DNA of 64,000 bases from an uncultured Gemmatimonadaceae bacterium (GCA_963829055.1 CAWHHI010000005.1:256001-320000), one strand, 5' to 3'. Numbered from the stretch's first letter, positions 19,003 through 37,129 are shown. Notes: a model not told the origin generated them from the sequence alone. Made by a program: numbers and translations.

Positions 19003-19722
19003 ATGAGCGCCATCGTCATCCCGCCCACGCCCGTTACGTCTCGGCGCCTCGCGCCGGTCGCGTCGTGGACGCACACTGTCGTCGTCGTATCGGTCTTCGC
19101 GGCGCTCGCACTTGCGGGCGTGCTCGGTCACGCGCATGTGAGCGCGAACCGGGCGAGTGTGGCGTCGCGCCCGAACACCATTCTGATCTATGTCGGGCTG
19201 ATCGCGGCCGAGTGGGCGTTGGTCATGTACGTGCGCCGAGGCGTGCGTCGCACCGGAACGACGCTCGTCGACCTCCTCGGCGGTGGCTTGAGCGAGCGCC
19301 GCAACCTGGTGTCCGACCTCGCGCTCGGCGCCAGCCTGTGGGGCATGTGGGCGCTCATCGAACTGGCGTCTGCCCACTGGTGGGGAGCCTCGAGCGGCGC
19401 GACGGTACGGCCATTTCTCGCCCATCGCCCGGTGGAGGTGGTCACCTGGATCGTACTCTCCATGAGTGCCGGCTTCGCCGAGGAGGTCGTGTTCCGCGGG
19501 TACCTGCAGCGGCAGTTCGCCTCGCTCACGGGAAGCGCGGGAGTCGCGCTCGTTATGCAGGCCGCGCTCTTCGGCGTGTCGCACGGCTATCAGGGCCCCG
19601 GCGCCTGCGCGAGAATCATCGCGTTCGGGTGTCTGTTCGGACTCGTCGCACTCTGGCGGCGACGCTTGCGGCCGGGGATCATCGCACACGCGCTCACCGA
19701 CATCATTGCCGGACTTGCTTGA
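19003..19722 (+). CDS. CPBP (CAAX/Abi) family intramembrane metalloprotease
   Basis: EEVVFRGYL, FGVSHGYQG and AHALTD motifs; multiple TM segments. Confidence 0.9.
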   Translation: MSAIVIPPTPVTSRRLAPVASWTHTVVVVSVFAALALAGVLGHAHVSANRASVASRPNTILIYVGLIAAEWALVMYVRRGVRRTGTTLVDLLGGGLSERRNLVSDLALGASLWGMWALIELASAHWWGASSGATVRPFLAHRPVEVVTWIVLSMSAGFAEEVVFRGYLQRQFASLTGSAGVALVMQAALFGVSHGYQGPGACARIIAFGCLFGLVALWRRRLRPGIIAHALTDIIAGLA

Positions 19723-20204
19723 ACACGGACCTGGACGAGCTGTATCGCAAGTACGCCCCGGACGTCTTCCGCTTCGCGCTCTACCTCTCGGGAGAGCGGA
19801 GCGATGCCGAAGACATCACGTCGGAGACGTTCGTCCGTGTCTGGACGTCGGACACGCCGATCGAGCTCGCCACGGTGCGCGGCTATCTCTTCACGATCGC
19901 GCGTAATCTCTTCCTGCAGAGCCGCCGGAACGCCGCTCGCACTGTCGCTCTCGGCGAAAGCCTTCCGGCGACACGCGCGAGCCCGCACGAGGAGACGGAG
20001 CAGCGGGACGAGCTCACGGCCGTGATGGCGTGCCTCCGCACGCTCCCCGAGATCGACCGCGCGGCAGTCGTCATGCGCGCGGAGTACGACATGCCTTACG
20101 AGGAGATCGCCGCTGCCCTCGGCATCTCCGTATCGGCGGCGAAGGTAAAGGTGCATCGGGCGCGGCTCGCGCTCGCTGGCTTTCGCACAGGAGTCTCCCA
20201 ATGA
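19719..20204 (+). CDS. ECF RNA polymerase sigma factor
   Basis: TTG start overlaps the CPBP stop; LYRKYAPDVFRFA, DAEDITSETF, GYLFTIARN, YEEIAAALGISVSAAKVKVHRAR. Confidence 0.9.
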   Translation: MNTDLDELYRKYAPDVFRFALYLSGERSDAEDITSETFVRVWTSDTPIELATVRGYLFTIARNLFLQSRRNAARTVALGESLPATRASPHEETEQRDELTAVMACLRTLPEIDRAAVVMRAEYDMPYEEIAAALGISVSAAKVKVHRARLALAGFRTGVSQ

Positions 20205-20647
20205 CCGAGCAATCGATGCGAGTGTCGCGGGATGTCATCGTCGACCTGCTTCCCCTCTACCTCTCGGGCGAGGCGAGCGGCGACACGCGCTCGCTGGTGG
20301 AACAGTATCTCAGTCGAGACGAGGCCCTGGCGCTGCAGGTGCGGCTGCACCTGACCGACGGCCTCGGCGCCGGCGCAGCGCTGGCGCAGCTCCCACCCGA
20401 GCTCGAGCTGCGTTCGCTCACTCGAACGAGGGCGCTACTGCGCAGGCAGCGGTGGCTCTTCGGTGTCGCGATCGGTCTGTCGCTGCTCACCTTGACGACC
20501 GAGATCTCGTTCGAGGGGAGTCGTGTGACCGGGCTCCGCTTCCTGGTCCGCGACTACCCGCTGGTGTTCGCGCCGATCGCGCTGGCTGCCATCGTGTGCT
20601 GGTTCGCGTATCTGAAGGGGGCGCGGCGGCTGCGGACGCGGTCCTGA
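20201..20647 (+). CDS. Membrane anti-sigma factor (zf-HC2-like N-terminus, 2 TM)
   Basis: ATGA overlap with the sigma gene; RDVIVDLLPLYLSGEASGDTRSLVEQYL followed by two TM helices. Confidence 0.75.
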   Translation: MTEQSMRVSRDVIVDLLPLYLSGEASGDTRSLVEQYLSRDEALALQVRLHLTDGLGAGAALAQLPPELELRSLTRTRALLRRQRWLFGVAIGLSLLTLTTEISFEGSRVTGLRFLVRDYPLVFAPIALAAIVCWFAYLKGARRLRTRS

Positions 20648-21226
20648 GCGTCTGCTCGATCCGAGATGGGTGAGACGGGTGCGACGTTGGCTGCGCTGAA
20701 CAGGAAGCTCGAGCCGCCGCTCAACAGTCCGAAGAGAGCAAGCGCCGCCAGCGCCAGCAAGATCACGATAAGGAGAACGAGCCGGCGCGCGCACCCGACC
20801 GCCGTCGCCAGCCTAACGCTATCCGGCGAGAATGGCGGCTCGATCGACCAGCCGCCACGCGGCTCGATCGGGACGGTCTCGATCTCGCGGATCTCGCCCC
20901 TGCCTCGCACAGGCTCTGGATCGTGCCACACGTCGACGGGGACGGGTTCCGGCTCTGCGCGCGGGATGGGACGTGAGCGAGGCCGGACCGGCGGCTCCAC
21001 GCGTGCGCGAGGAGGAGGCGGCGGCGGGCGGCGGGTTTCGCGTGCGACGCCGTAGCGGGCGCCGCACGTGGAGCACACCGGCCCGTCCAGCCAGAGCCCC
21101 GGCGACGTGGTTCGTGCAGAAGTAGCGTGCGTCGGCCTCGTGGCATGCCTCGCACTCGCCTAACGCGCCCTGCGTCGTGCCACAATTCGGGCAGCGGATG
21201 ATGACATCACTCACGACGTCGCTCAC
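20554..21226 (-). CDS. Zinc-ribbon protein with Pro-rich linker and C-terminal TM helix, frameshifted near 21100
   Basis: CPNCG..CEAC..CTNH..CSTCG pairs, PPPPPP linker, LVLLIVILLALAALALFGLL; GTG start overlaps the phosphatase stop. Confidence 0.68.
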
Positions 21227-22501
21227 ACTGGTGCTCCGTCGGTGTCCGCTTCACGGCCATCGGGCTCGCCGTCGTCCGAATAGACGTCGCGTACCAGCGC
21301 AGCCGGCACGTGCAGTCGGTGCACCTGTGGCAGCGTACCCGGCACCCACCGCGCGATCGTCGGTACGCGCTCGAACGCCCCGAACGCCTCACGTGGCAGG
21401 CGTCGGGAGAGCGCCACGGTCGTGAGGACCGGGTGAGCCGCGTAGGCCGGGTAGATCTCGTAGCGCTCGTCGACGTGGTCGTGCCCGCGCACCATGTGCG
21501 TCACTGGTCGGCCGAGCTCCGCGCTGAGGTCGCAGAAGGCGGCGAAGTCCTCGTGCCCGAACTCGCTGCCGCGCGACGTGCGGTTCGGCATCTTCTTGCG
21601 CGCCCGCGGATGCGCGCGCGTCCACGTGAAGTCGGTGAGGCAGCGGGGGTCGTTCCAGTCGCCCGTCGCTCGCAGATCGGCGTGCAGGTCGACGAGTGGG
21701 AAGCCGCCGTGGGTGACGAGCAGACCGTCCGGGAAGAAGAGCGCCCGCGGCGCCGACGCGAACAGGCGCACCGCGAGCTTGCCGGTCCGGGTGATCCACT
21801 CGTGGGCGAGGTGTGCGTTCAGAAAGTCGGTGAAGTCGGACGGGCTCACGGTCGCCGTGAAGTGCGCGCCGGTGTAGTGCAGCGCCTCGTCGTGGTTCCC
21901 GGCAACGAGGCAGACGGACCCTGGCGCTTCCACGATCAGCTCGAAGACGCGCAGCAGCACTTCCAGCCCGTAGCCTTCGTCATCGAAGAGGTCGCCGAGG
22001 AACACGACGCGCGGCGCGCCGTCTTCGGTGGGCGCGTCTCGGCGGATGAGTGCGAGCGCCGCCTCGAGGGCGAGGAGGTCGCCGTGCAGGTCACCGATGA
22101 ACCAGAGTGGCGCGTTAGGCTCGAGATCGACGACGCGGATCGCGCGATCGTTCGCGTTGGCGCGGTCCGCGTCGAAGAGCAACCCGGGTCCGCCCTCGTG
22201 GTCGAGCAGCGCCTCGAGTTGTTCCACCGTGGTGCGCATGCGCGCGCGAATCCCGGCGGGGTCTACGGCGTCCCGCACGGCGGACCAGTCGAGATCCTCG
22301 ACGTCGAGCGACTGGCGGGACGGGTGGGACGGCGGGCGCGTCGGGCGGAGTAGCGTCGGTGGTTGCATCGGCGACTGCATCCGATGCCGGCACGTTAGGC
22401 GCCGGGGCGGCGGTCGTGGTGGCGTCCGGCTCGCTGGCGTCCGGTATGACGTCGCTCTGCGACGCACCCGGCGGTGTGCCGCCGTTGGGCTCAGACTGCA
22501 T
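21223..22501 (-). CDS. Calcineurin-like (PPP-type) metallophosphoesterase / Ser-Thr phosphatase, frameshifted near 22370
   Basis: GDLHGD, GDLFD, GNHD, THGG and RGHDH motifs; low-complexity acidic/Pro N-terminus in ORF 22115..22501. Confidence 0.85.
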
Positions 22502-22529
22502 CAGACTGCATCAGACGGATCAGACTGCA
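22491..22529. repeat. Short tandem repeat at the kinase/phosphatase junction
   Basis: TCAGACTGCA x2, TCAGACGGA, TCAGACTGCA. Confidence 0.85.
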
Positions 22530-23916
22530 CGAACCGTGAGCGGCAACTTGACGATCCCCGCCGCCTTCCGACCGACCGCGATCACGTCGCCGTCGTGGAG
22601 CGGCTGCGGCGCAGCGAGCACGTCGCCGTTCAACAGCGTTTCGTTCGCCGTGCCGGGCGCGGGGGCAACTTGCCAGCGTCTGTCGGGTCGGCGCTCGAGC
22701 ACGCACTGTCGCACGTCCCAGAACTGGGCGTCGCTCCCGAACTGCTGAGCGAGGTGCTTCCCGACCTCCGTCCGCACGCCGATCTCGAGCGCGCGGCCGC
22801 CGTTCCCCACGAGCTGAACGCGATCCGCGATGAGCGGCGCACCTCGCCTGACTCCGGGCTGCCGGCGCTGCCGGTCAGCCGGTTTCGCGGCCGGAGCAGG
22901 TTTGGGCGCCGCGGTCGCCGATGCGCTCGCGGCAGCGCTCGCGCTAGTGCGCGCGGCGCCTGTTGTCGCGGCGGCAGTGCTGCGCACCTCCGAGCGAGGC
23001 CCGCGGCCACTCAGCACCGCCCGCAGCTCGGCCGCCGTCGGGCGGTCTGCCGCGTTAGGCGCGAGGCAGCGGTGCAGCGCGGCGCTCACCTCGGCGTTGG
23101 TCGCGGGCGCCGGCATCGTCCCGGCGAGCACGGGCGGCTTGGCGGAGTACGCGCGCACGAGACTCGCGTACTCCGCCTGGTCCTCGCGCCAGTACGGATG
23201 CGTCCCGGCGAGCAGCTCGTACAGGATCAGCCCGCACGTGAAGACGTCGGACGCCAGGCCCGGCATCGCGCCGCGCGTGAGGTGTTCTGGCGACCGGTAG
23301 TTGTCCGAACCCACGTACCCCTGGTAGCCGTGCCACGGCGCGCGGTGGTCGGCCAGCACCGAGAAGTCCATGTCGATCAGCTTGAGCTGGTAGCCCGAGC
23401 CGATGGACGGATCACGGATCAGGTAGACGTTAGGCGGCTTGAGGTCGGCGTGGACGATCTTCGACTCGTGCAGCGCCGCGATGCCCGCCATGAACACCTT
23501 GGCCCACGTCACGTGCCGCGCCCACACGGCCGGGTCGCGCAACGGCGACGCGCCCGTGCGCTGGTGCACCTCGCGCTCCGCATCGAGCATCTGCTGCAGG
23601 TCGCTGCCGTGCTCCACGAACTCGTAGGCCTGGAAGTAGCACGGCCCGCCCCACACCTCCTCGAACGCGTCGACCAGTCGGACGGCGTAGTGTGCCGCCT
23701 TGCCGTTCGCGCACCCGGCGCGGCGAGCTCCTGCTGGTAGTCGACGAACGATGGATACCAGATGACCGCCGGCGACGGCGACTTGTACTGCTTGAGGAAG
23801 ATCTTCGTCCCGCCCGGGGCCTCGGCGGCGTACGAGATCGCCATCGCCCCCGGCCCGAAGACCTTCGTGACGCGATACCCGCGGATCGCGTCGCCGACCT
23901 TGAGCTTCTTCGCCAC
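22520..23916 (-). CDS. Ser/Thr protein kinase with C-terminal FHA-like domain, frameshifted near 23720
   Basis: GGGGGAGG RBS; GPGAMA loop, FLKQYK, HADLKPPN, LIDMDFS, YRSPEH, SDVFTCGLILYELL; tail NETLLNG...LHDGDVIAVG resembles FHA. Confidence 0.85.
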
Positions 23917-23931
23917 GCCCGACCTCCCCCG

Positions 23932-24847
23932 TCAGAGCGCGACCGTCTCGGCTGACTTCGACACGCTCGCGGCGAGCTGCTTGAGCGTCGTGCGGAAGTG
24001 TTCCGGATCGGCGGTGAACTTCTGCAGCGCCTCCTGCGGCGAGAGCCCCTCGTACTCGACGACTTCCCACTCCGACTTGTCGATCTGGCTCAGTCGGTCG
24101 TAGCCCTCGAAGTTCGGCGCGAAGAGGCTGAGGATGATGCGGTTCGCCATGACGACGTTCGCCACGTCCTGCAGGCTGCCGCCCTTCGCTTCCGGGATGG
24201 ACATCGTCTCCTTGAAGGAGGCGTCGGTGAAGACGACCACGACGCGCGCCGCGTCGCTGCGGTAGCGCCACTTGTTAGGCTCCTCGCCCTGCGCGCCCTT
24301 GGGAGAGGCCTCCATGGTCGCGACCTTGTAGAGGGCGTCGAGCAGGGACTCGGGCTCGTCGCCGCCTCCCGCCGCGCGCAGGCTGGCGAGCTGCGCCTTG
24401 AGCGCCACGGCGTCGCGCACGAACGGGTTGTCCTCGATCCACGGCAGACCTTCGGCCTCCGCATGCTCGATGTCGCGATACCCGACGACCTTGCCGCGCC
24501 AGTCCTTCACGGGCGCCGCGTTGTTCGCATCACCTCGGCTCAGCGAGTCGATGAACATCTCGATGTTCTTGCGCAGCGCATCGATGATGGGCGTCATGCT
24601 GCCCGATGACGTCGATCAGGAAGACGATGTCGGCGACGCCCTTGGTCTTGGCGCGCGGTGCGACAGGCGGTGCCGCCGCCACGTCCACTGGCCCGTTCGC
24701 GACGTCGGCCGACGGCGTGACCTCGATGTCAGCCGGAGGCGGCGCAGCGGGTGCGGCGCTCCCGGCGGATGCTGACCCCGACGCAGACCCGGACTCGGTC
24801 GGAGGGGATTCGGGCGAGAGGGGCTCGGTGTGCTCGGATGATTCCAT
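23932..24847 (-). CDS. von Willebrand factor A (vWA) domain protein, frameshifted near 24605
   Basis: ADIVFLIDVxGSM (MIDAS, split by the indel), VGYRD, GGGDEPES, WR...VVVVFTDA. Confidence 0.85.
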
Positions 24848-24992
24848 CGCGCGCTCCGCGGTGTTCTGGGTGGTAGGCTCCTTTCACTCTCGTGACGTGG
24901 AGAGGCCCAGACGCACGTTCGTTGCCGCCAGCTCGCGGGACTGCGGTGGTTCGAGCGTCTGGATTTGCGAGCCTGCACCGCAATCAGTGCAA

Positions 24993-25394
24993 TCAGTCCA
25001 GCAGGTCCGCCGGCACCTTGCCGCCGTTCTCCGCCAGCTTCTTCAGCACCTGCTTGTGCAGCCAGATGTTCATGGTGGCGGTGTCGCTCGTGTCGCCGGT
25101 GTACCCGAGCTCGTGTGCGAGCTCACGCCGCTGAGACAGGCTGCTGTCCATCCCGAGGAGCGTCATCAGGTCGACGATCGAGTAACGCCAGTTGACCTTG
25201 TGCGAGTACTTCGAGGCCAGTCCCTCGAGCACGGCCTCCACGTCGACGACGGGCGGCGCGGCGGCAGGGGCCACGGGCGCTGGCGCTGCTGGTTTATTCG
25301 CTGCTGCCGGCGCAGCGGCAGGTGTCGCCGTTGGCGCGGGAGCGTCGTGGCTCCGGCCCATGATCTTGGACATCAGCGTTCCGAAAATGCTCAT
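24993..25394 (-). CDS. DUF3597 domain protein
   Basis: MSIFGTLMSKI, Ala/Pro linker, WRYSIVDLMTLLGMDSSLSQRRELAHELGYTGD...MNIWLHKQVLKKLAENGGKVP. Confidence 0.88.
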   Translation of the reverse strand: MSIFGTLMSKIMGRSHDAPAPTATPAAAPAAANKPAAPAPVAPAAAPPVVDVEAVLEGLASKYSHKVNWRYSIVDLMTLLGMDSSLSQRRELAHELGYTGDTSDTATMNIWLHKQVLKKLAENGGKVPADLLD

Positions 25395-28372: not shown

Positions 28373-29131
28373 ATGGATCCTAGCGCGCTATACCTCGAGC
28401 ATCTCGATCGGATCAACCGTATCGCGGAAGCACTCTGCACACGCCACGGAGTCCGTGGCGCTGATGCCGAGGATTTCACGTCCGAGGTCCGCCTGCGTTT
28501 GCTGCAGGACGACTACGCGGTCCTTCGAAAGTATCGCGGCGCCAGTTCGATGCCCACGTTTCTGACAGTGGTCATCGGAAACCTGTTCCGCGATTACCGC
28601 ATCAAGCGCTGGGGCAAATGGCGCCCGTCGGCCGAGGCGAAACGGCGTGGCGAGGCGGCGGTTCTCCTGGAGACGGCCGTCTATCGCGACGGCCGTTCGT
28701 TCGACGACGCGTGCCGCCTGCTTCAGGGCAACGGACGGGTCGACGTGGACGCCGGAGAGCTGCGTCGAATCATGGCCGAGCTGCCACGTCGCATCCGGGT
28801 TCGCCAGGACGATGACGCCAGCCTGGACTCCGTCGCCACCACCGAGGAGACCGATGACCTCGTGCTCGAGAACGAGCGCCGGGACCGGTTGCTCGCGGCC
28901 GAGAGTGCACTGAGGCGCGCGCTCACGCGTCTCGATCCCGAGGACCGGCTCATCATCACGATGCACTTCTTCGAAGGAATCTCCATCGCCGACATTGCCC
29001 GTGCGCTCGGGCTGCCGGCGAAGCCCTTGTATCCGCGGATCAAGCGACTGCTCGATGCACTGTCCGGCCAGCTCGTGAGTGAAGGAATAGGGCCTGACTA
29101 CCTCCAAGCCGTGAGAGGGGCACTCGTGTGA
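28373..29131 (+). CDS. ECF-type sigma factor (long, about 250 aa, CHAT-locus type)
   Basis: DAEDFTSEVRLRLLQDDYAVLRKYRG..TFLTVVIGNLFRDYRIKRWGKWRPSAEAKRRG; region 4 LDPEDRLIITMHFFEGISIADIARALG. Confidence 0.85.
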   Translation: MDPSALYLEHLDRINRIAEALCTRHGVRGADAEDFTSEVRLRLLQDDYAVLRKYRGASSMPTFLTVVIGNLFRDYRIKRWGKWRPSAEAKRRGEAAVLLETAVYRDGRSFDDACRLLQGNGRVDVDAGELRRIMAELPRRIRVRQDDDASLDSVATTEETDDLVLENERRDRLLAAESALRRALTRLDPEDRLIITMHFFEGISIADIARALGLPAKPLYPRIKRLLDALSGQLVSEGIGPDYLQAVRGALV

Positions 29132-29135
29132 CGAC

Positions 29136-29160
29136 GGAAATGTTCACTCGCGTCCGTCAC
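29136..29160 (+). promoter_or_regulatory. Putative ECF promoter, copy 1
   Basis: GGAAA-N10-CGTCCGTCAC upstream of the anti-sigma-like gene. Confidence 0.65.
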
Positions 29161-29240
29161 TTACTTGTGGGTGCGTCTCACGTCTGTCTCGGGCAGTGCC
29201 CGCGTACGGCGGCGGCAGGCTGAAACACGTCAGGGAGCCA

Positions 29241-30167
29241 ATGCAATCGTCCGAAAACGATATCGATCTCGAGCTGATCGCGGCGCTCATTGACGGCCGT
29301 CTCGCAGGGGCGGAACGCCAGCGTGCGATCGAGCTGGTGAGCTCCTCCGAGGCCGCGCTCGAGATCTATACCGATGCGTTGCGCGTTCAGGCGGACCTTG
29401 CCCCGGAGAAAGTCGTCGCCCTCGTCCCTCGTCGTGAGGCCGGGACTCGCCGGTGGCTCGCAATCGCTCCGTTGGCCGCCGCGGCCGTATTGTTGATCGC
29501 GATCGTTCCGACAGTGAAGGCGCGCCGTGATCAGGCACTATTCTCTTCGACGGCGATGTCGATCGCGCAGCCAGTCATGGGGCGCGCGCAAGTGCCGGGA
29601 GCACTAGGTGCTGGCTGGGAAGAGCGGAACTGGTCGGTGACACGCGGCGCCGCCTCACGCCTGGTCGAGTCCACCGTCGCCTTCCGACTCGGCGTGCGCG
29701 TGGTCGACTTGCAGGTTGCACTGGTGAGAGCGGATACGGTTCCCGCGGTTCGCGTGACAGATGAAATCGTCGAGTCGCTGAAGATGGAGCCGCTTTCCGA
29801 GTCGGTGATGGCGGACTATTCCGCGCTTCGCACGCGGATCACGAGCACTGCGCCGCGAGAGCAGGTCGTCGCAAGTGCGTCCCGATCCGAGGAGGCGATG
29901 GATGCGTTCCTCGGCTCTCGCTGGTTCGACTTCGGGAAGTGGTTCGCCGCCGGGGAGCTCGCGGCTCGCACGCACTCTCCGGATTTCTTTGCGTCGAACA
30001 GAACGACACGATTTCTCGACTGGGCGATCGAGCGCGGAGAGCTCGCGCCGAGTGACGTCGCGTCGCTGCGCCAGATCAGGGGCCTCGCGGCGCAGGGCGT
30101 CTCTGACGGGGACTATGACACGATACAGCAGCTCTTCCTGACGCTCATTCAGCGTCACGGCGGGTAG
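29241..30167 (+). CDS. Putative membrane-anchored anti-sigma factor (Cys-less zf-HC2-like N-terminus, one TM, extracytoplasmic domain)
   Basis: DLELIAALIDGRLAGAERQRAIELVSSSEAALEIY resembles the ZAS helix pair; TM WLAIAPLAAAAVLLIAIVP; directly follows the ECF sigma gene. Confidence 0.65.
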   Translation: MQSSENDIDLELIAALIDGRLAGAERQRAIELVSSSEAALEIYTDALRVQADLAPEKVVALVPRREAGTRRWLAIAPLAAAAVLLIAIVPTVKARRDQALFSSTAMSIAQPVMGRAQVPGALGAGWEERNWSVTRGAASRLVESTVAFRLGVRVVDLQVALVRADTVPAVRVTDEIVESLKMEPLSESVMADYSALRTRITSTAPREQVVASASRSEEAMDAFLGSRWFDFGKWFAAGELAARTHSPDFFASNRTTRFLDWAIERGELAPSDVASLRQIRGLAAQGVSDGDYDTIQQLFLTLIQRHGG

Positions 30168-30203
30168 GCAATTCGACTGCTGTAACCCACGCATGGAGGG
30201 TCC

Positions 30204-33200
30204 ATGCGGGTTGGAAGGTTCGATTCACGTGATCTTCGTGCTGGCCGCGCGCTGGTCGTGCTGCTCTCGACCGCCGCGATCGGTGGCATTGTCGCGTCCG
30301 CGTTCCTCGTACGGCCGACGCCGCGAGGCGGAAACGTCTGGCTGGGTCGCCTCGCCGACGCCGTCGGGGCTCATCGCGTGACGCGAGCCCGCCTCACGAG
30401 CCGATTCACGTACGCGGCCTGCGAGGCGGCGGTGCCTAACGACATGCTGATCGCCGGCCTCGTCTGCGCCGACGCCCGACCTGCCGCCTGGGTCACAGTC
30501 GGGCAAGCTGTCGACGCTCGCAACCGAGATGCGCTCGGCTGGAACAGCCGATTCGACGGACGCCGCCCGCCGGCATGCGTCCGGATCATGGCACATCGTG
30601 TGGGGCGACGCCGACGCGGCAATCCGCGAGTTGGGGGCTGTTGCTCGGATGGATTCGACCAACGCGAACGTACGGAGTGATCTGGCCGCCGCGTTTCTTC
30701 AACGGGCGCAACTCGAGCAGGACCCGCTGTCGATTCTGGACGCCTACGCCGCGATCGACGGCGCGCTCGCGCTCGATCCGCGGCTGCTCGAGGCGCGCTT
30801 CAACCGCGCGCTCGCGCTCGAGTGGCTGTATCTGCGCACTGACGCGACCCAAGCCTGGTTGGACTATCTGAAGCTGGACGCACGCTCGGCGTGGGCGGAC
30901 GAGGCGCGGGCACGATTGCAGGCGCTTCGAACACCGCTCCCGAGTTGGAGCGATGCGCAGGAGCGCCTGCGCCGCGCCGTGCGAACCGGGAATGACACGG
31001 TCGTCGACGAGCTCGTACGGCGGTTTCCTCGGCGTGCGCGCGACGATGTGTGGCGGACCATCACTGCCTGGGCTCACGTCCATCAGGATGGCGCGTCACA
31101 GCCCGACACGCTGCTGCATCGCGCCATGAGCGTCGCGCGATCGGTGGAATCGGTCACGGGGGACGCGCTGCCGGTCGACGTGGTGCGGCCAATCGAACTG
31201 GCGGCGGCGGTGGGCGACCGATCGCGTCTCGACGCGCTGGCGCGCGGTTTGATCGCCTACGAAAACGGACACGGGTTCGCCAACGCTTTCGCCCCCGACT
31301 CCGCCGCGGTCTGGTTAGGCATCGCGCGGAAAGCGTTCGCCGCGAGCGGCAGCCCGGGCGTGTACCTCGTCGCGTACGATTCCGCCATGATCCCCTACTC
31401 CCGCGCCGGGACACGTGGATACGACGAGGCACTCTCGCTGTTTCAAGCGATTCGCGAGACCACGCCCGTGAAGTATCACGTGATCCGTGGGCGTGCGGCT
31501 CGTACGGTGGGACTCATTCACGCCATACGGGCGGACTACGATTCGTCCATCACCGCTTATCAGGCGGCGGTCGTTGAAGGGCGGGGAACCGGAGAACCCG
31601 GCCTCGATCTCCGACCGCGAGGAATTCTCGCGTCCCTCTATGCGGAGATCCGCGGCGAAGACCAGGCCTGGGCAGAGTTGTATGCCGCGTTGCGATCGTT
31701 GCGGGACTACCCCGAGGAGTTGGGCGAAGCACAACGTCTGTTCGTCACCGCCGCTGACCTCAGCCGACGACGATCCCCTGCGGCGGCACTGCTGTTTCAG
31801 GCCGAAGCGGTCCGGCTTGCGCGCCTCGTCGATCGCTCCGGAACGATGGCAGTCACGGCGCTCGCGAAGCAGGCGGAGTTGTTCAGTGACAACGGGATGG
31901 CTGAGAAAGCCTTCGAGAGCGTGCATAACGCGCGTGCTGTCGCGGACAGCATCGTGAGCGACTCGACGCGAGCCCTCATGATCGCCGATGTGGACCTCGT
32001 TGAAGGCAAAGTGTGGCTTCGCGTCCGTCCGGAGTCGGCCGTCGTCGTTCTGAAGAGAGCCGTCGAGCGTTACCGCAACACGCGATACCTGCTCGAAATG
32101 GATCGCGCCGATCTGCTGCTCGCCAACGCGTACGTGTCCTCTGGACAGATGAAGGAGGCGCGAAGCGCGTTCAGTGCATCGCTCGAGGAGACGGAACGGC
32201 GCCGGGCGAAGATCGATGACAAGGAGAACCGGGCGCAGTTCCTCGACAAGGCGCGCCCTGTCATCGACAGAGTGGTCGCGTTCGATCTGGAGCAAGCGGA
32301 TACGGTCGGCGCGCTCGAGTTTCTCGAGCACATGCGCGCCCGTGTCCTGCTCGATCGCGTGGGGCGGCGACTGGCTGCCAGTGCGCAGGCGGCCGTCGCG
32401 ACAGCCGATCGCCGACCTGCAGCGTACCATTCCCGCGGGCACGAGCGTGATCAGCTACGCGGTGCTGGACAGCGAGGTCGTGTCGTGGGTGCTGCACGAC
32501 GACCGTGTGACCATGCACCGGACGCACCTAACGACGTCGCTGGAGGGGCTGATCACTCGCTTCACGGCGTTGATCGAAGCGCGATCGTCGGCGACGGAGG
32601 TGCGCGCACTCTCGGCGCAGCTGTACAGCGTGCTCATCGCGCCGCTGCGAGACGACATCGCCGGGGACACGCGGCTCATCGTCATACCGGACAAGTGGCT
32701 GCATTTTCTTCCGTTTTCGGCGCTGTTCGACGCCCGTGCCGGGCGCTTCCTCGTCGAGTCGTTCGAGATCAGCGTCGCGCCGAGCATCGCGCTGTACCAA
32801 CAGTCGGCGGCGCGGTATGCACAACTCGGCACAGCCACTCCGAGCGTGCTGGCCGTGGGAAATCCGTCGTTCGACGCAGCGACGTTCCGGCTTCCTCGGC
32901 TCCCTGGGGCGGAGCTCGAGGCTGCGCGTGTCGCGCAGGGGTACGACCACGCGCAGCTCATGGTGGGTGCGGCGGCGACGAAGCGCGCTTTTCTTCGCGA
33001 GGCGGCCACGTCGGCGGTGGTTCACTTCGCGGGGCATGGCGTCGTCAACTCGAATGCCCCCCTCCTCTCCTACCTGCTGCTTGCGCCCGAACCTAACGTC
33101 GGCTCCTCCGGAGCGCTCTACGTGCGCGACCTGTTCGACATTGCTCTGCCGCGAACGCGGCTCGCGATTCTCTCGGGATGTCACACCGCCGCCGGACAGC

Positions 33201-33478
33201 TATCGGAGACTGAAGGAGCATCGTCCCTCGCGCGCGCACTGTTCGCCGCTGGTGTGCCGGTGGTGATCGCGAGTCTCTGGGCGGTCGATGACAGGGACGC
33301 CGCGGAGTTCTTCGTGAGCTTCCATCGTGAGCTCGCGAGAGGCACGGACCCGGCGGCCGCCCTGCGAGCCACGCAACTCCAGTGGCTCACGAAGGAGGAG
33401 GGCGGACGACAGACACTGGCGACGTGGGCGGCGTTTCAGCTGTTCGGTGCTACCTCGGGATCAGGCCGTGGCAGGTGA
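30204..33478 (+). CDS. TPR + CHAT (caspase HetF-associated) protease with N-terminal TM/signal, frameshifts near 30520 and 32400
   Basis: N-terminal hydrophobic helix; TPR-like EARFNRALALEWL; CHAT motifs IIPDKWLHFLPF, LPGAELEA, catalytic HFAGHG and LSGCHT, SLWAVDD, WAAF. Confidence 0.88.
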
Positions 33479-33483
33479 GTGAG

Positions 33484-33508
33484 GGAATCGAAGCCGTTCG
33501 TCCGTCTA
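33484..33508 (+). promoter_or_regulatory. Putative ECF promoter, copy 2
   Basis: GGAAT-N10-CGTCCGTCTA upstream of the unknown gene at 33608. Confidence 0.65.
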
Positions 33509-33607
33509 CAGCTATGAGTACGAGGTGTTGGAGTCGTGACTGATCTCGGCACGGCGAGGTGCCAAGCAGCCACTCGCAGTCACGTACGATGACCGAGGAG
33601 GTACGCC

Positions 33608-34636
33608 GTGCCGGTTCGAATCATTTTTCGTGGGCTGGTTCTCTTTAGCATCGAGAACGAGCGCGGCAAGAACGGTCGCATCGTAGCGCAGCTCGTCGAC
33701 TGCAAGCACATGATGGGCGGAGGCAAGAAGCCTAAGAGTCCGCATAAGGATCTCCATACGCACACCCCGGATGATTCAGATCGGACCGGACGGGGATGGT
33801 CGGTGACGGCTCAGCCGACGACGAAGCGATGGCTGGTATGAAGAGCGCCGCTCGGGGCCATCAGCCCGCGAACGTCCTTCCGCCGACCGCGATTACACGG
33901 TGACATCCAGATCGGGGATCCGAGTTCTGGCGCGCCGGTGAAGGTCGCCGACAGCTATCGCGAGCACTGTCCGAACCTTTCTCACATTCTGAACAACAGG
34001 CCCCGCCACATCCTCCCGAAGGCAATGAAGAAGCCAAGCTTGAAGCGCAACAAGTTCGTCTCGCGGACCGTGACGATCTACGGCGGAACGATTCGCGTGA
34101 ACGAGGTCGTGGCGTGGGATGGCGGCGGCGTACCCTCTGGCTAGCTCGCCTAACAACGGAAGCCGATTCACGTCGCCCGCCGAAGTCAGCTTTCTGACTT
34201 CCACGGTCCGCGGCCATATGGCGAGCGAGTGCGTGGTCGAGGTTGATTCGGTGGACATCTCGAACGGGCAGAAGGGGCTACCGAAGCGCGTCGATGAAGG
34301 CGAGATCCTCATCACGAACCTCCCCCCGTGAGCGGCCCAAGCCAGTGCCCTGGAGTCTTCACTTCTTCTGCCTGTTTCAGGCTGCCGGATACCGCACCCG
34401 CAAACATCGACGGGAACGAACTCGATTGGTTCAAGGAATTCGCGCGCGGCGTACGATCCGGGTCGCGTTCGCGGAAGACGAAGCGTTCCTGGGCGAGGAC
34501 GGCGCACACCGGGTTCCCGTTCCCCTACCTCGACCCCGAAACCGCCCTCACGCCGCTCAACCCGATAACGCCACCGCTCACTGACCCCTGGAACCGCCCG
34601 CTCTGCCCACAGGGCGACAATAGCCCACATCACTAG
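33608..34636 (+). CDS. Hypothetical protein (about 330-340 aa) broken by several frameshifts
   Basis: Strong GAGGAGG RBS; consecutive fragments VRIIFRGLVLF..., VKVADSYREHCPNL..., VRGHMASECVVEV..., PVPWSLHFFCLFQAAGY..., GFPFPYLD...RPLCPQG appear to form one gene. Confidence 0.6.
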
Positions 34637-34668
34637 CCGATCCCGCTGAGGCGTTAGGCATCGCGTTC

Positions 34669-35646
34669 GTGTCCACCAGCGTCTTCCGCGAGCTTCCGGG
34701 CCTGAGCGAGGCGTGGACGGTCACGCGAGGTGCCAACGCCGTCGTGGCCGTCGTCGACGAAGCGGTCGACGTCCACCACCATCCGGAGTTCGTCGGCCGA
34801 GTCCTGCCCGGTAACGATGAAGCGCGTCAGGCAGCGGGCGATGGTTCGTACGTCCATCGCCCGCACGGCGCCAAGGTCGCCGGTATCGCGTTGGCCAACG
34901 GTCCGCACGTCACCGGCGTCGCACCGGAAGCGCAGCTCCTCCCCGTCGCCGTGAACGCACTGAGCCGCATCATCGGTCACCCCTCCGAAGCCGATGCGAT
35001 CCGATGGGCGGCGGCCCACGGTGCAGATGTCATCTGCTGCGCGTGGGCACCTCCGGACCTGACGGGAAAACGGGGACGTCTCCCGTCACGGACGCGTGCG
35101 GCGCTGGACTACAGCATCGAGTTCGGACGCGGCGGCAAAGGCTGCGTCATCATCTTCTCCGCTGGAAATGTCGGCCGCGACATCAGGCTGAACGGCTACG
35201 CCAGTCACCCCGGCGTGATCACCGTGGGCGCCTGCAACTGCCACGGTACCCATCCGTCCTATAGCGGCTACGGCGAGGCGCTCTGGTGCGTCTTTCCGAG
35301 CAACGATCCCGGTGATCACGTCGGCGCGTGGATGACCTATCTCACGACGGCGCCCGTAGGATCGCTGTTGAATGGCGACGCCTACTACACCACGCGGTTC
35401 GGCTTCACCTCCGCCGCCTGCGCCGGCATCGCGGGAATCTGCGCGCTCATCGTCAGCGCGAATCCCAACCTCACCGCGCACGAAGTGAAGCAGGTACTCC
35501 GGAGCTCCTGCGAGAAGATCGACGCCTCGAGCGGTACGTACGACGCGCGCGGACACAGCCCGCTCTACGGGTATGGACGTCCGGATGTAGTGCGCGCCGT
35601 GCGCCTCGCACGAGAACATGAGAAAGCGCAAACCGCGTCCGTCTAG
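34669..35646 (+). CDS. S8 family subtilisin-like serine protease, no signal peptide or prodomain visible
   Basis: Catalytic D (VAVVDEAVD), H (HGAKVAG), oxyanion N (SAGN), S (GFTSAAC), YGYGR tail. Confidence 0.88.
   Translation: MSTSVFRELPGLSEAWTVTRGANAVVAVVDEAVDVHHHPEFVGRVLPGNDEARQAAGDGSYVHRPHGAKVAGIALANGPHVTGVAPEAQLLPVAVNALSRIIGHPSEADAIRWAAAHGADVICCAWAPPDLTGKRGRLPSRTRAALDYSIEFGRGGKGCVIIFSAGNVGRDIRLNGYASHPGVITVGACNCHGTHPSYSGYGEALWCVFPSNDPGDHVGAWMTYLTTAPVGSLLNGDAYYTTRFGFTSAACAGIAGICALIVSANPNLTAHEVKQVLRSSCEKIDASSGTYDARGHSPLYGYGRPDVVRAVRLAREHEKAQTASV
35621..35645 (+). promoter_or_regulatory. Putative ECF promoter, copy 3
   Basis: AGAAA-N10-CGTCCGTCTA inside the last codons of the S8 gene, upstream of the kinase. 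Confidence 0.5.
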
Positions 35647-35785
35647 ATCCTATAGATCGGAGTGGTGTTCCGGCGCGATCGCCGTGACGTCCGATCACTG
35701 ACCTCCAGCACGGCACGTCGGCATCCGATGTCCGAATCTCGGACGGTGAGCCGCGCTCGTGGAGCGTCACGGGATGAGGCGACGC

Positions 35786-37129
35786 ATGAGTGATCATTTT
35801 GCCAGTATTGCTGACGCCCTGAGCCTCCGGTACAGGCTCGAACGAACGCTGCAGAGCGGCATGGCCGCTCACGTGTATCTCGCTGAAGAGCGTGCGCTGA
35901 GGCGGCGCGTCGCGGTGAAAGTCTTGCGCGACGAGATGGCCGCGACCGTCAACGCCGAGCGATTCCTCGCCGAGATCCGTGTGTGTGCGCGTCTCCGGCA
36001 TCCGAACATCGTCCCCGTGTATGAATCGGGCGAGGTCGACGGGTTACCGTATTTCGTCATGCCGTTCATTGACGGGGAAACACTGCGCACGCGGCTCGCG
36101 CGCCTCGGCCGCCTCCCGCTGAGCGAAGCGATTTCCATCGCCCAGGACATTGCTCGCGCGCTCGACTTCGCGCACCGTCACCAGATCGTGCACCGCGACA
36201 TCAAGCCCGAGAACGTGATGCTGTACGGTGGGCGGGCCCTCGTCCTCGACTTCGGCATCGCGCTGGCCATGGACACCGTGGAAGCATCCCGTTACACCAT
36301 GCCGGGGCTCACGTTAGGCACGTTGCCCTACATGAGCCCGGAACAGGTCGGCGGCGAATCACCGGTGGACGGGCGCAGCGACATCTACAGCCTTGCGTGC
36401 GTCATCTACGAGATGCTGAGCGGGCGTCCGCCGTTCACCGGATCGCTATCGGCGGTGATCCGGCAACACCTGGGCGCCCAGCCGCGCCCGCTCGCCGAGG
36501 TCTGTCCGGGGCCGTACCCCAAGATCGGGCGTGTACTCTTGCGTGCACTCGGCAAGACGCCTGACGCTCGCTACGACAGCGCCGGTTCGTTCATCTCGGC
36601 GCTCGTCGGCGCCGCGCCACGCGTGCGAGTCATCGGGCAACGTGTGGCGGTGATCTCGTTCACGAACCTCGGTCCGTCGCCGGCGATCGACACGTTCAGC
36701 GACAGCGTCGGTGAGGAGGTCGTCGCGGCACTCCGACCCATAGACGGAATTGCCGTGGTTGCAGGAAGCTCGATCGGCGACACTTCAGTCGACGTGCACC
36801 CCGCGGAGATCGCACGACGTCTCGGTGCCGACGTGTTGCTGTTCGGCAGCGTACGCAACGACGAGGCTGTCGGTCACGTCCACCTGTGCGCGGTTCTCCT
36901 CGACGGCCGAAGCGGTCGGACACTATGGGCCGGCGCGTTCGCCGGGCCGTGTCACGGTGGACCGTACCGGGAGTGGCAGTCGGTCATGCAGTTGGCCGAT
37001 GCGGTAGCCACCACGCTCGGAGTCAAGCGCAACGGGTCACCATGCGAGCGCAGATTCTGCGACGCAACGCGGCGCGGTGACCAGAATGAATCGAACCCAG
37101 GGTCCACGGGGCGGACGGCAGCGCGTTGA
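35786..37129 (+). CDS. Ser/Thr protein kinase with TolB-N-like C-terminal domain
   Basis: VAVKVL, HPNIV, HRDIKPEN, DFG, YMSPEQ, SDIYSL; then VAVISFTNL...EIARRLGADVLLFGSVR; no TPR tail. Confidence 0.92.
   Translation: MSDHFASIADALSLRYRLERTLQSGMAAHVYLAEERALRRRVAVKVLRDEMAATVNAERFLAEIRVCARLRHPNIVPVYESGEVDGLPYFVMPFIDGETLRTRLARLGRLPLSEAISIAQDIARALDFAHRHQIVHRDIKPENVMLYGGRALVLDFGIALAMDTVEASRYTMPGLTLGTLPYMSPEQVGGESPVDGRSDIYSLACVIYEMLSGRPPFTGSLSAVIRQHLGAQPRPLAEVCPGPYPKIGRVLLRALGKTPDARYDSAGSFISALVGAAPRVRVIGQRVAVISFTNLGPSPAIDTFSDSVGEEVVAALRPIDGIAVVAGSSIGDTSVDVHPAEIARRLGADVLLFGSVRNDEAVGHVHLCAVLLDGRSGRTLWAGAFAGPCHGGPYREWQSVMQLADAVATTLGVKRNGSPCERRFCDATRRGDQNESNPGSTGRTAAR

Follow-up and report, generated by a model that had tools for sequence, protein, structure and literature searches.

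The 64,000 nt of DNA analysed here (the window, G000:C5:256001-320000) come from the genome of an uncultured Gemmatimonadaceae bacterium (G000, 86% complete), and carry at 28373..37129 a cassette of six co-oriented genes on the + strand, encoding a sigma factor of the extracytoplasmic function (ECF) type, a protein with a single transmembrane (TM) segment, a TPR-CHAT protease, a protein of a family that we named UNK (here of subfamily UNK1), an S8 protease and a Ser/Thr kinase. We propose, with slightly better than even confidence, that this cassette is a split version of the DdvA/DdvS-type envelope switch, in which release of the sigma factor leads to a cytoplasmic two-subunit protease output. 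The features on which this proposal is built are as follows.

28373..29131 (+), long ECF sigma factor of 252 aa, with sigma2 and sigma4 domains separated by a long linker (Sigma70_r2 and r4_2, Pfam)
29136..29158 (+), promoter-like motif P1, GGAAA-N10-CGTCCGTC, right after the sigma stop codon and before the anti-sigma and CHAT genes, present in 9/9 aligned loci
29241..30167 (+), single-pass anti-sigma with a zinc-less, zf-HC2-like N-terminus and a helical periplasmic domain (TM at residues 74-92, nt 29460-29516)
29631..29648 (+), candidate CHAT cleavage site W-x-x-x-R-G in the periplasmic linker (R135 at 29643-29645), suggested by its conservation
30204..33478 (+), exported TPR-CHAT protease of approximately 1,090 aa (PF12770, E 5e-67; N-terminal anchor at nt 30255-30311)
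33484..33506 (+), promoter-like motif P2, an exact match, upstream of the UNK1 and S8 genes
33608..34636 (+), UNK1, leaderless beta-rich protein of approximately 335 aa (77 and 129 homologues; at least 5 frameshifts)
34669..35646 (+), bare S8 catalytic domain without signal peptide or propeptide (PF00082, E 4.5e-36)
35621..35643 (+), degenerate promoter-like motif P3 (22.4 bits), overlapping the 3' end of the S8 gene, upstream of the kinase gene
35759..37129 (+), Ser/Thr kinase with VAVK, HRDIKPEN and DFG motifs and a degenerate Gly loop (PF00069, E 4e-42)

The original prediction for this locus had described this set of six co-oriented genes, including the long ECF sigma factor, the single-TM anti-sigma-like protein, the signal-less S8 subtilase and the kinase, and gene and domain calls bore out this description. 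Its membrane-anchored CHAT with intact catalytic residues was likewise found: the His-Cys dyad consists of the His of HFAGHG at 33035 and the Cys of LSGC at 33179, and is conserved across the CHATs compared, with intact orthologues being approximately 1,100 aa long. The N-terminus of CHAT has a basic n-region followed by a hydrophobic segment (residues 18-36), and many CHAT paralogues carry lipoboxes; because of this anchor and these lipoboxes, we predict an extracytoplasmic location of the protease domain. With this topology CHAT can reach the periplasmic part of the anti-sigma, but not by default UNK or S8, and its direct cleavage of the leaderless UNK or S8 is unlikely. The predicted topology of the four proteins points away from the type III-E CRISPR protease Craspase, to which the locus had been likened, and towards periplasmic regulated intramembrane proteolysis as proposed for DdvA.

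According to the accessible part of the report on the DdvA/DdvS operon of Myxococcus xanthus (PMC11506125), this operon encodes a sigma factor, an anti-sigma fused to CHAT, a protein of no assigned function and a C25 peptidase, and the periplasmic CHAT was proposed to be a site-1 protease, an idea which could not be put to the test because its signal is not known. Our cassette resembles it in having an ECF sigma with sigma2 and sigma4 only and several sigma-dependent promoters (putative ones here; PMC6061681; PMC11506125), a single-pass anti-sigma (whose N-terminal domain is of class I there and a weak zf-HC2 match here), a periplasmic TPR-CHAT with a His-Cys dyad (its location here being predicted), and an operon that continues with a gene of no assigned function and one for another peptidase, which is of the C25 type in Myxococcus and of the S8 type in our cassette. 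It differs in that CHAT is a separate exported protein instead of being fused to the anti-sigma, that the CHCC zinc ligands are missing from the anti-sigma, which possesses a helical periplasmic domain of its own, and that no CBASS (cyclic oligonucleotide-based antiphage signalling system) or CRISPR regulon lies nearby, CBASS genes not having been searched for genome-wide. Apart from a single Comamonas, the accessible part of the same report places DdvA-like fusion proteins in Myxococcota only (PMC11506125), and the CHAT, sigma and anti-sigma of the window gave no sequence match to the solved DdvA or DdvS chains.

All 13 anti-sigmas of the type encoded in the window (type A) have one TM segment and lack Cys and His in their first 55 aa; the zf-HC2 match is weak (7/13 family members, best E 0.0014), and in the Atlas cluster of look-alikes 79% match zf-HC2. 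Residues W131, R135 and G136 are invariant in 13/13 type-A anti-sigmas. In zf-HC2 anti-sigmas encoded beside other CHAT genes, the sole conserved linker column is Arg (27/32), with the remaining five carrying LRG, IRG or VRT just ahead of differing C-terminal domains. A loose form of this Arg motif was present in 29/32 CHAT-linked linkers versus 5/14 control anti-sigmas (obtained from 30 loci), and in a mean of 12.4 and a maximum of 21 shuffled linkers (1,000 shuffles), but since the motif was derived from these very linkers, and related sequences do not count as independent cases, we treat the enrichment as a lead. The position of R135 after the TM segment (74-92) is at the same distance as that of the DdvA loop closest to the dyad, V129-P140, after the TM segment at 71-92, and separases cleave after Arg (both PMC11506125). 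We infer that the Arg-Gly at R135 is a candidate CHAT cut site, although Arg need not be the P1 residue because bacterial CHAT specificity varies.

The sigma factor matched TIGR02937 (62.7 bits, cut-off 42.9) and has sigma2 and sigma4 only, with its DAED motif intact, as in 11/13 ORFs of relatives (EADE in one, one truncated); the Ser/Thr replacement of DAED typical of the ECF43 type is absent. An ECF-type motif, GGAAW-N10-CGTCCGTC, was detected upstream of the anti-sigma, UNK1 and kinase genes, with two exact copies in the window (29136 and 33484) and none in 100 shuffles. Variants of P2 were found at the same place in L026, L056, L057, L058, L063, L065 and L067-L069 (the L0xx-L1xx loci being stretches from relatives or from the same genome, and G000-G005 and G084 being genomes), and the position of P3 is shared by L026, L047, L049, L050, L056, L060, L064 and L068. 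With a matrix built from 20 sites, all of them in relatives, 7 matches were obtained in the 7.8 Mb of G000, no more than in shuffles (6-9), so that only their placement is informative; three of the seven fall in this locus. The strict pattern gave 8 matches in five genomes, five of them within the cassette, and none for the reversed control. No conserved distant regulon was found, as the three strict matches outside the locus (in G000, G001 and G005) precede different, unrelated genes. No copy of the motif was seen upstream of the sigma gene in the aligned loci, and the sigma factor thus appears to act on the genes for its inhibitor, for the protease and for the outputs, but not on its own gene. 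We infer that this sigma factor reads the GGAAW-N10-CGTCCGTC promoters; other CHAT-adjoining sigma clades have GCAA-N13/14-TCCGT at the same place. The best genome-wide copy of the motif, at G000:C16:738696 (L185), lies upstream of a gene for a secreted protein of approximately 600 aa resembling a multicopper oxidase by eye, and none of the relatives searched showed it at an orthologous gene. The TASV/TVSV that recurs at the C-terminus of the S8 protease (window 35621-35646) overlaps P3, and appears to be a shadow of this motif and not a protein signal.

Conserved synteny, for which the original prediction had recommended a search, was found in genomes labelled Gemmatimonadota. All six genes are present in the same order and with open frames in the same-genus genomes G004 and G005, and likewise in G084, which belongs to another family, and the gene order is thus not due to chance. 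G001 has five of the genes followed by an inverted second cassette, and in G002 the contig end falls inside the CHAT gene. Matches to the anti-sigma were detected in 7/61 related genomes, the source genome included. We examined 48 loci with a UNK1 gene, which include several near-duplicates and one contig twice, counting only loci that were informative for the gene in question. CHAT was directly upstream of the UNK gene in 31/32 loci with enough flank and S8 downstream in 34/37, while the anti-sigma was present in 14/16, the sigma factor in 13/15 and the kinase downstream in 14/18, making the kinase the least constant member. As judged from these comparisons the cassette is real and conserved, with intact ORFs, in soil Gemmatimonadota. 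UNK1 was found in only 2/401 genomes of the phylum (the source genome included) and CHAT in 46/151 genomes of this class, indicating that the sigma/anti-sigma/CHAT core is common and the UNK1 family rare; using few queries, both sigma and anti-sigma were found at 25 of 40 CHAT loci, which had been picked from 69 matches for flank length.

In the window itself the CHAT gene has two frameshifts (near 30495 and 32400) and the UNK1 gene at least 5. Frameshifts are however frequent throughout this assembly, with about 0.5 per kb of coding sequence genome-wide, rpoB included, which is intact in G004 and split in G000. Relative to G004 orthologues, frame changes occurred in 22/46 G000 genes (37 in 69.5 kb), these being the genes that passed filters out of 69 with matches, from 77 queries in 14/20 fetched regions. 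As rpoB is also split and so many of the compared genes are frame-changed, the frameshifts in the window are probably assembly errors, and given the genome-wide rate, genes reported as broken in this assembly deserve distrust. Three database fragments are 98-100% identical to parts of the window UNK1 gene, with no intact copy among them, and are probably calls on the same assembly; at least half of the sampled sequence words were present in eight public runs. The two CHAT frameshifts match expectation from the assembly-wide rate (P 0.52), but the 1-kb UNK1 gene has at least 5 where 0.55 were expected (Poisson P about 3e-4). This excess favours the view that the cassette, though functional in relatives, is a decaying pseudogene cluster in this genome, which we consider quite unlikely given the split rpoB and the 22/46 frameshifted orthologues, the frame-aware alignments that required no in-frame stop, and the retention of the catalytic residues and of three promoter copies; it would moreover concern this strain only and leave the mechanism unaffected.

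UNK1, like S8, has no signal peptide, by inspection and hydropathy, and among 77 homologues conserves H57 (77/77), H55 (69), N234 (73) and C326 (76). Two further subfamilies, UNK2 (78 matches, encoded in a CHAT2-UNK2-S8b cassette) and UNK3 (188 matches, in Longimicrobium and others), are related to each other (hhalign probability 95 and 97); homology of UNK1 and UNK2 is weak (probability 58, E 1e-4) and rests partly on shared motifs, with an N-terminal FxGL strand, a His pair, an aromatic helix and a C-terminal Cys in common. No match to UNK was obtained in Pfam, NCBIfam, PADLOC, PDB sequences or the ESM Atlas, and 11 intact members had no Pfam match at E<=0.05. Predicted models of an intact UNK1 orthologue (pLDDT 85, pTM 0.81) and of a second UNK (pLDDT 86, pTM 0.89), in both of which the conserved C-terminal Cys is followed by a strand, gave no match at Z>=2 among 48,161 chains and none at E<=0.001 (VIA-align and Foldseek, run without positive control). 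UNK may thus represent a new fold, a structural blank not being proof.

The UNK superfamily (UNK1/2/3) is encoded beside TPR-CHAT in every well-flanked locus but one. UNK2/3 were present in 8/401 genomes of the phylum, and in nine of nine further UNK2/3 loci TPR-CHAT is adjacent or across a sigma/anti-sigma pair. In a quick tree, where row L025 stands in the wrong place owing to a fused UNK protein that makes up its last 310 residues, the CHATs linked to the UNK family form one clade (33 rows, SH-aLRT 98), and the UNK subfamilies pair with CHAT subclades. In G005, a single open frame, 1,488 codons long, spans CHAT and UNK1 (L010:4901-9364), with the internal ribosome-binding site retained. UNK2/3-type genes were also observed with genes for a C14 caspase-like protease, a sedolisin or a longer S8 (L109:124-1950, L139:6259-8051, L143:2829-8663, L144:3175-9054 and L145:5306-7912), one sedolisin being located behind the same promoter motif, and the second protease is thus exchangeable. 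Some UNK1 proteins have a Lys/Ala-rich, histone-H1-like tail past the conserved Cys (L011:8848-10068, L013:2882-4084 and L032:4989-6206), which is missing from UNK1 of the window. Viral contigs contained no relatives, and plasmids none of UNK1 or the anti-sigma.

S8 proteases commonly have a Gly-Thr-Ser nucleophile motif, a signal peptide and a propeptide. The S8 protein of the cassette starts at most about 30 residues ahead of its catalytic Asp, and across 23/23 family members the triad and oxyanion Asn (D30/H66/N167/S248) are invariant, with Phe or Tyr replacing the Gly before Thr-Ser in all of them. When the G004 orthologues of UNK1 and S8 were co-folded, ipSAE values of 0.80, 0.82 and 0.83 were obtained, versus 0.00 for three controls; the ipSAE mark is reached by 116/157 solved and 2/215 mismatched pairs, counts which are rough as our own alignments were used. 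The runs share at least 60% of contacts, with partner pLDDT of at least 78, and as no structure of an UNK relative has been solved, it is unlikely that the predictor reproduced a complex already seen in training. The predicted contacts on S8 include the oxyanion Asn N167, residues 245-246 and the 230-243 hairpin, and those on UNK include strands 53-64, 72-77 and 229-240, H55 and H57 not being among the listed contacts. From these models UNK1 is therefore predicted to be a binding partner of the propeptide-less S8, docked next to the active site, and we read UNK as a putative regulatory subunit or dedicated substrate that would replace the missing propeptide; it may also be an S8-activated effector, which is compatible with the explanation we favour. 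No fusion of UNK1 to S8 was found among 129 representative matches, all of at most 420 aa, the longer UNK2/3 forms not having been searched. The kinase belongs to a family that is much expanded in G000 (97 tblastn matches at E<1e-20); PADLOC matches of the kinase (PD-T4-6 and others) and of S8 as defence genes were rejected as generic domain matches, and no PADLOC model fits CHAT.

Taken together, the split DdvA-like switch would operate as follows. The zinc-less N-terminal domain of the single-pass anti-sigma would hold the ECF sigma factor, until the TPRs of the exported CHAT bind a signal that activates the His-Cys dyad of this protease. CHAT would then cut the periplasmic linker of the anti-sigma after the conserved R135, and, by analogy with DdvA, RseP followed by cytoplasmic proteases would free the sigma factor; an RseP-like gene is present in G000, in pieces, at C16:381937-383125. 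The freed sigma factor would read the GGAAW-N10-CGTCCGTC promoters of anti-sigma and CHAT (feedback), of UNK1 and S8, and of the kinase, after which leaderless UNK and propeptide-less S8 are predicted to form a heterodimer, with UNK docked beside the S8 active site and acting as its regulatory subunit or dedicated substrate. The role of the switch is most likely to answer an attack on the envelope, whether by phage, predator or competitor, which is a guess from DdvA and the weakest step.

Several observations weigh against this scheme, in addition to the circularity of the Arg motif and the chance-level matrix count noted above. One of the control anti-sigmas, L168, in fact belongs to the CHAT-linked type, members of the UNK superfamily differ in their second protease (S8, C14, sedolisin or none adjacent), CHAT-UNK-S8 cassettes without a sigma gene exist, and no defence genes adjoin the locus. 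The spacing of the promoter motif is short for an ECF promoter, by 2-3 bp compared with textbook examples. A range of 14-17 bp is given for ECF promoters in the accessible part of PMC6061681. In the accessible parts of their reports, craspases cut after Met or Leu, the Runella gasdermin CHAT cuts after Leu (10.1101/2021.06.07.447441), and autoproteolysis by CHAT was not shown for DdvA, of which dyad mutants were like wild type (PMC11506125).

The lack of a phenotype in these mutants is also consistent with CHAT not being the site-1 protease at all, but a sigma-induced periplasmic output or protective partner, with the anti-sigma inactivated by another periplasmic protease or by phosphorylation by a linked kinase. 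CHAT is indeed encoded downstream of P1, the cassettes of G001, G002, G004 and G005 have a second kinase, a membrane-bound one, at their side, and there are the sigma-less CHAT cassettes; however, Arg is the sole conserved linker residue across CHAT-adjoining anti-sigmas with at least four different C-terminal domains, the dyad is conserved, and the sigma factor retains DAED, unlike the phosphorylation-activated sigmas of the ECF43 type (PMC8999054, accessible part), making this explanation unlikely. Also unlikely, though slightly less so, is that UNK is the partner of CHAT itself, either as leaderless ligand or as substrate, released by lysis of kin cells, perhaps after processing by S8, and sensed by the TPRs of CHAT on neighbouring cells, which would give a danger signal that amplifies itself. 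The location of UNK1/2/3 next to TPR-CHAT, the single clade of UNK-linked CHATs within which the second protease changes, the pairing of subfamilies with subclades and the continuous CHAT-UNK1 frame of G005 would all fit, but the pairing is accounted for just as well by joint inheritance within an operon, UNK lacks a signal peptide while CHAT is exported, and the fused frame is a single case which keeps its internal ribosome-binding site. A cytoplasmic cascade like that of Craspase or the gasdermins, in which CHAT or S8 cleaves UNK and frees a death effector, we consider very unlikely. It is suggested by the type III-B loci of Haliangium, in which a protease, a sigma factor, an inhibitor and a kinase are found together, by the patchy distribution of UNK1 (2/401 genomes), and by the C-terminal Cys and strand of both UNK models, which loosely resemble a removable C-terminal peptide; yet CHAT is exported, both UNK models are without structural match, UNK and CHAT fit none of the PADLOC models, and neither Cas1 nor arrays were found in G000, nor relatives in viral contigs. 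The original prediction of a stand-alone, protease-triggered sigma switch thus stands as the best reading and gains a candidate cut site and an output promoter motif, while its analogy with Craspase and gasdermins is not supported.

Combinations of ECF sigma, CHAT and subtilase genes were already catalogued, as ECF54 neighbourhoods, and together with the DdvA operon these run counter to the earlier statement that no characterised system with this layout was known. The gene context of ECF54 was reportedly covered by Huang et al. in 2015. In the accessible text on ECF54, the sigma factor is encoded with a subtilase and a TPR-CHAT and proteolytic control was proposed (PMC7826278 supplement; PMC8999054), but that group is actinobacterial and described without an anti-sigma, its promoter is of the GTATCAG/CTCC type, and its +1 position is taken by a carboxypeptidase-regulatory-like gene (PMC7826278 supplement), none of which holds in our Gemmatimonadota cassette with its TM anti-sigma at +1. 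Type III-E Craspase (Csx29/Csx30/CASP-sigma), the Haliangium SAVED-CHAT/PCaspase/PCi/PCk set and CalpL/T/S, as far as covered by the accessible text, share a CHAT-family protease upstream of sigma release (10.1101/2023.06.23.546230) and a second protease with dedicated partner and kinase in the same cluster; these are cytoplasmic and triggered by CRISPR or cyclic oligoadenylate (cOA), in contrast to the exported CHAT here, which has no SAVED domain. The locus had been described as CRISPR-less, and G000 at its 86% completeness contained no Cas1 and, in a crude exact-repeat scan, no CRISPR-like arrays, Cas7-11 not having been searched for separately. Bacterial gasdermin-protease pairs have in common with it a beta-rich protein of approximately 300 aa whose gene neighbours that of a CHAT or subtilase, and which has a conserved Cys and a short element at its C-terminus (10.1101/2021.06.07.447441, accessible part), but they show no fold similarity to UNK, whose Cys is C-terminal and whose neighbouring CHAT is in another compartment; no death or defence link was found at this locus. 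The cassette would thus work like DdvA/DdvS, yet is set apart from it by fusion state, zinc ligands and regulon, and from ECF54 by phylum, anti-sigma and promoter. The literature searched, which did not cover most subscription papers, yielded no description of the split cassette of Gemmatimonadota, of the linker Arg or of the UNK family, and we regard the promoter motif, the linker Arg-Gly candidate cut site, the UNK superfamily and the predicted UNK-S8 binding as new.

Related cassettes are present elsewhere in G000. Just past the window, at G000:C5:324758-329987 on the - strand (L071), a sigma-less cassette encodes a lipoprotein TPR-CHAT, UNK2 and S8b, and such a CHAT2-UNK2-S8b cassette adjoins or sits within the first cassette in L024, L026, L032, L040 and L047. 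In S8b, Ser or Gln replaces the oxyanion Asn, and it may be a weak or pseudo-protease. Four more cassettes of sigma factor, zf-HC2 anti-sigma and exported TPR-CHAT are located at C12:483383-489239, C9:159098-164600, C8:44165-50137 and C20:570004-574362; three of these are followed by genes for secreted proteins, and GCAA-N13/14-TCCGT follows the sigma stop codon in those of C12, C9 and C8. Elsewhere in the window, co-oriented genes at 20819-25394 (-) encode a DUF3597 protein, a vWA protein, a frameshifted Ser/Thr kinase with FHA domain and a calcineurin-like phosphoesterase, which presumably recall the TerY-phosphorylation-triad stress modules, and those at 19003-20647 (+) a CAAX protease, a second ECF sigma factor and a small membrane anti-sigma-like protein.

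The UNK superfamily comprises several hundred sequences without structural match and is predicted to complete a propeptide-less subtilase, making it a good structural target, and the UNK-S8 pairing may constitute a new way of controlling an S8 protease. We further consider, as an unlikely and speculative extension, that the superfamily is a new fold with a His/His/Cys ligand that is processed by the bound S8 or C14 protease and released from a damaged cell, so activating the TPR-CHAT of neighbours; if true, the cassette would be a self-contained danger-signal circuit of receptor, sigma switch, ligand, maturase and one promoter, and would supply the missing trigger for DdvA-like systems. A CHAT-UNK pair behind a copy of the motif is carried by a named strain, Gemmatirosa kalamazoonensis KBS708, on plasmid 1 (NZ_CP007129.1), where promoter motif, TPR-CHAT and UNK homologue occur in a row (L138:4349-9864), no sigma factor being found by the queries used in this 18.7-kb stretch. 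TPR-CHAT proteins are widespread, as their presence in almost a third of the genomes of this class illustrates, and mostly unexplained. With enzyme and substrate encoded by separate genes, a predicted cut site at R135 and a readable promoter, the idea of a periplasmic CHAT as site-1 protease, as put forward for DdvA, becomes testable.

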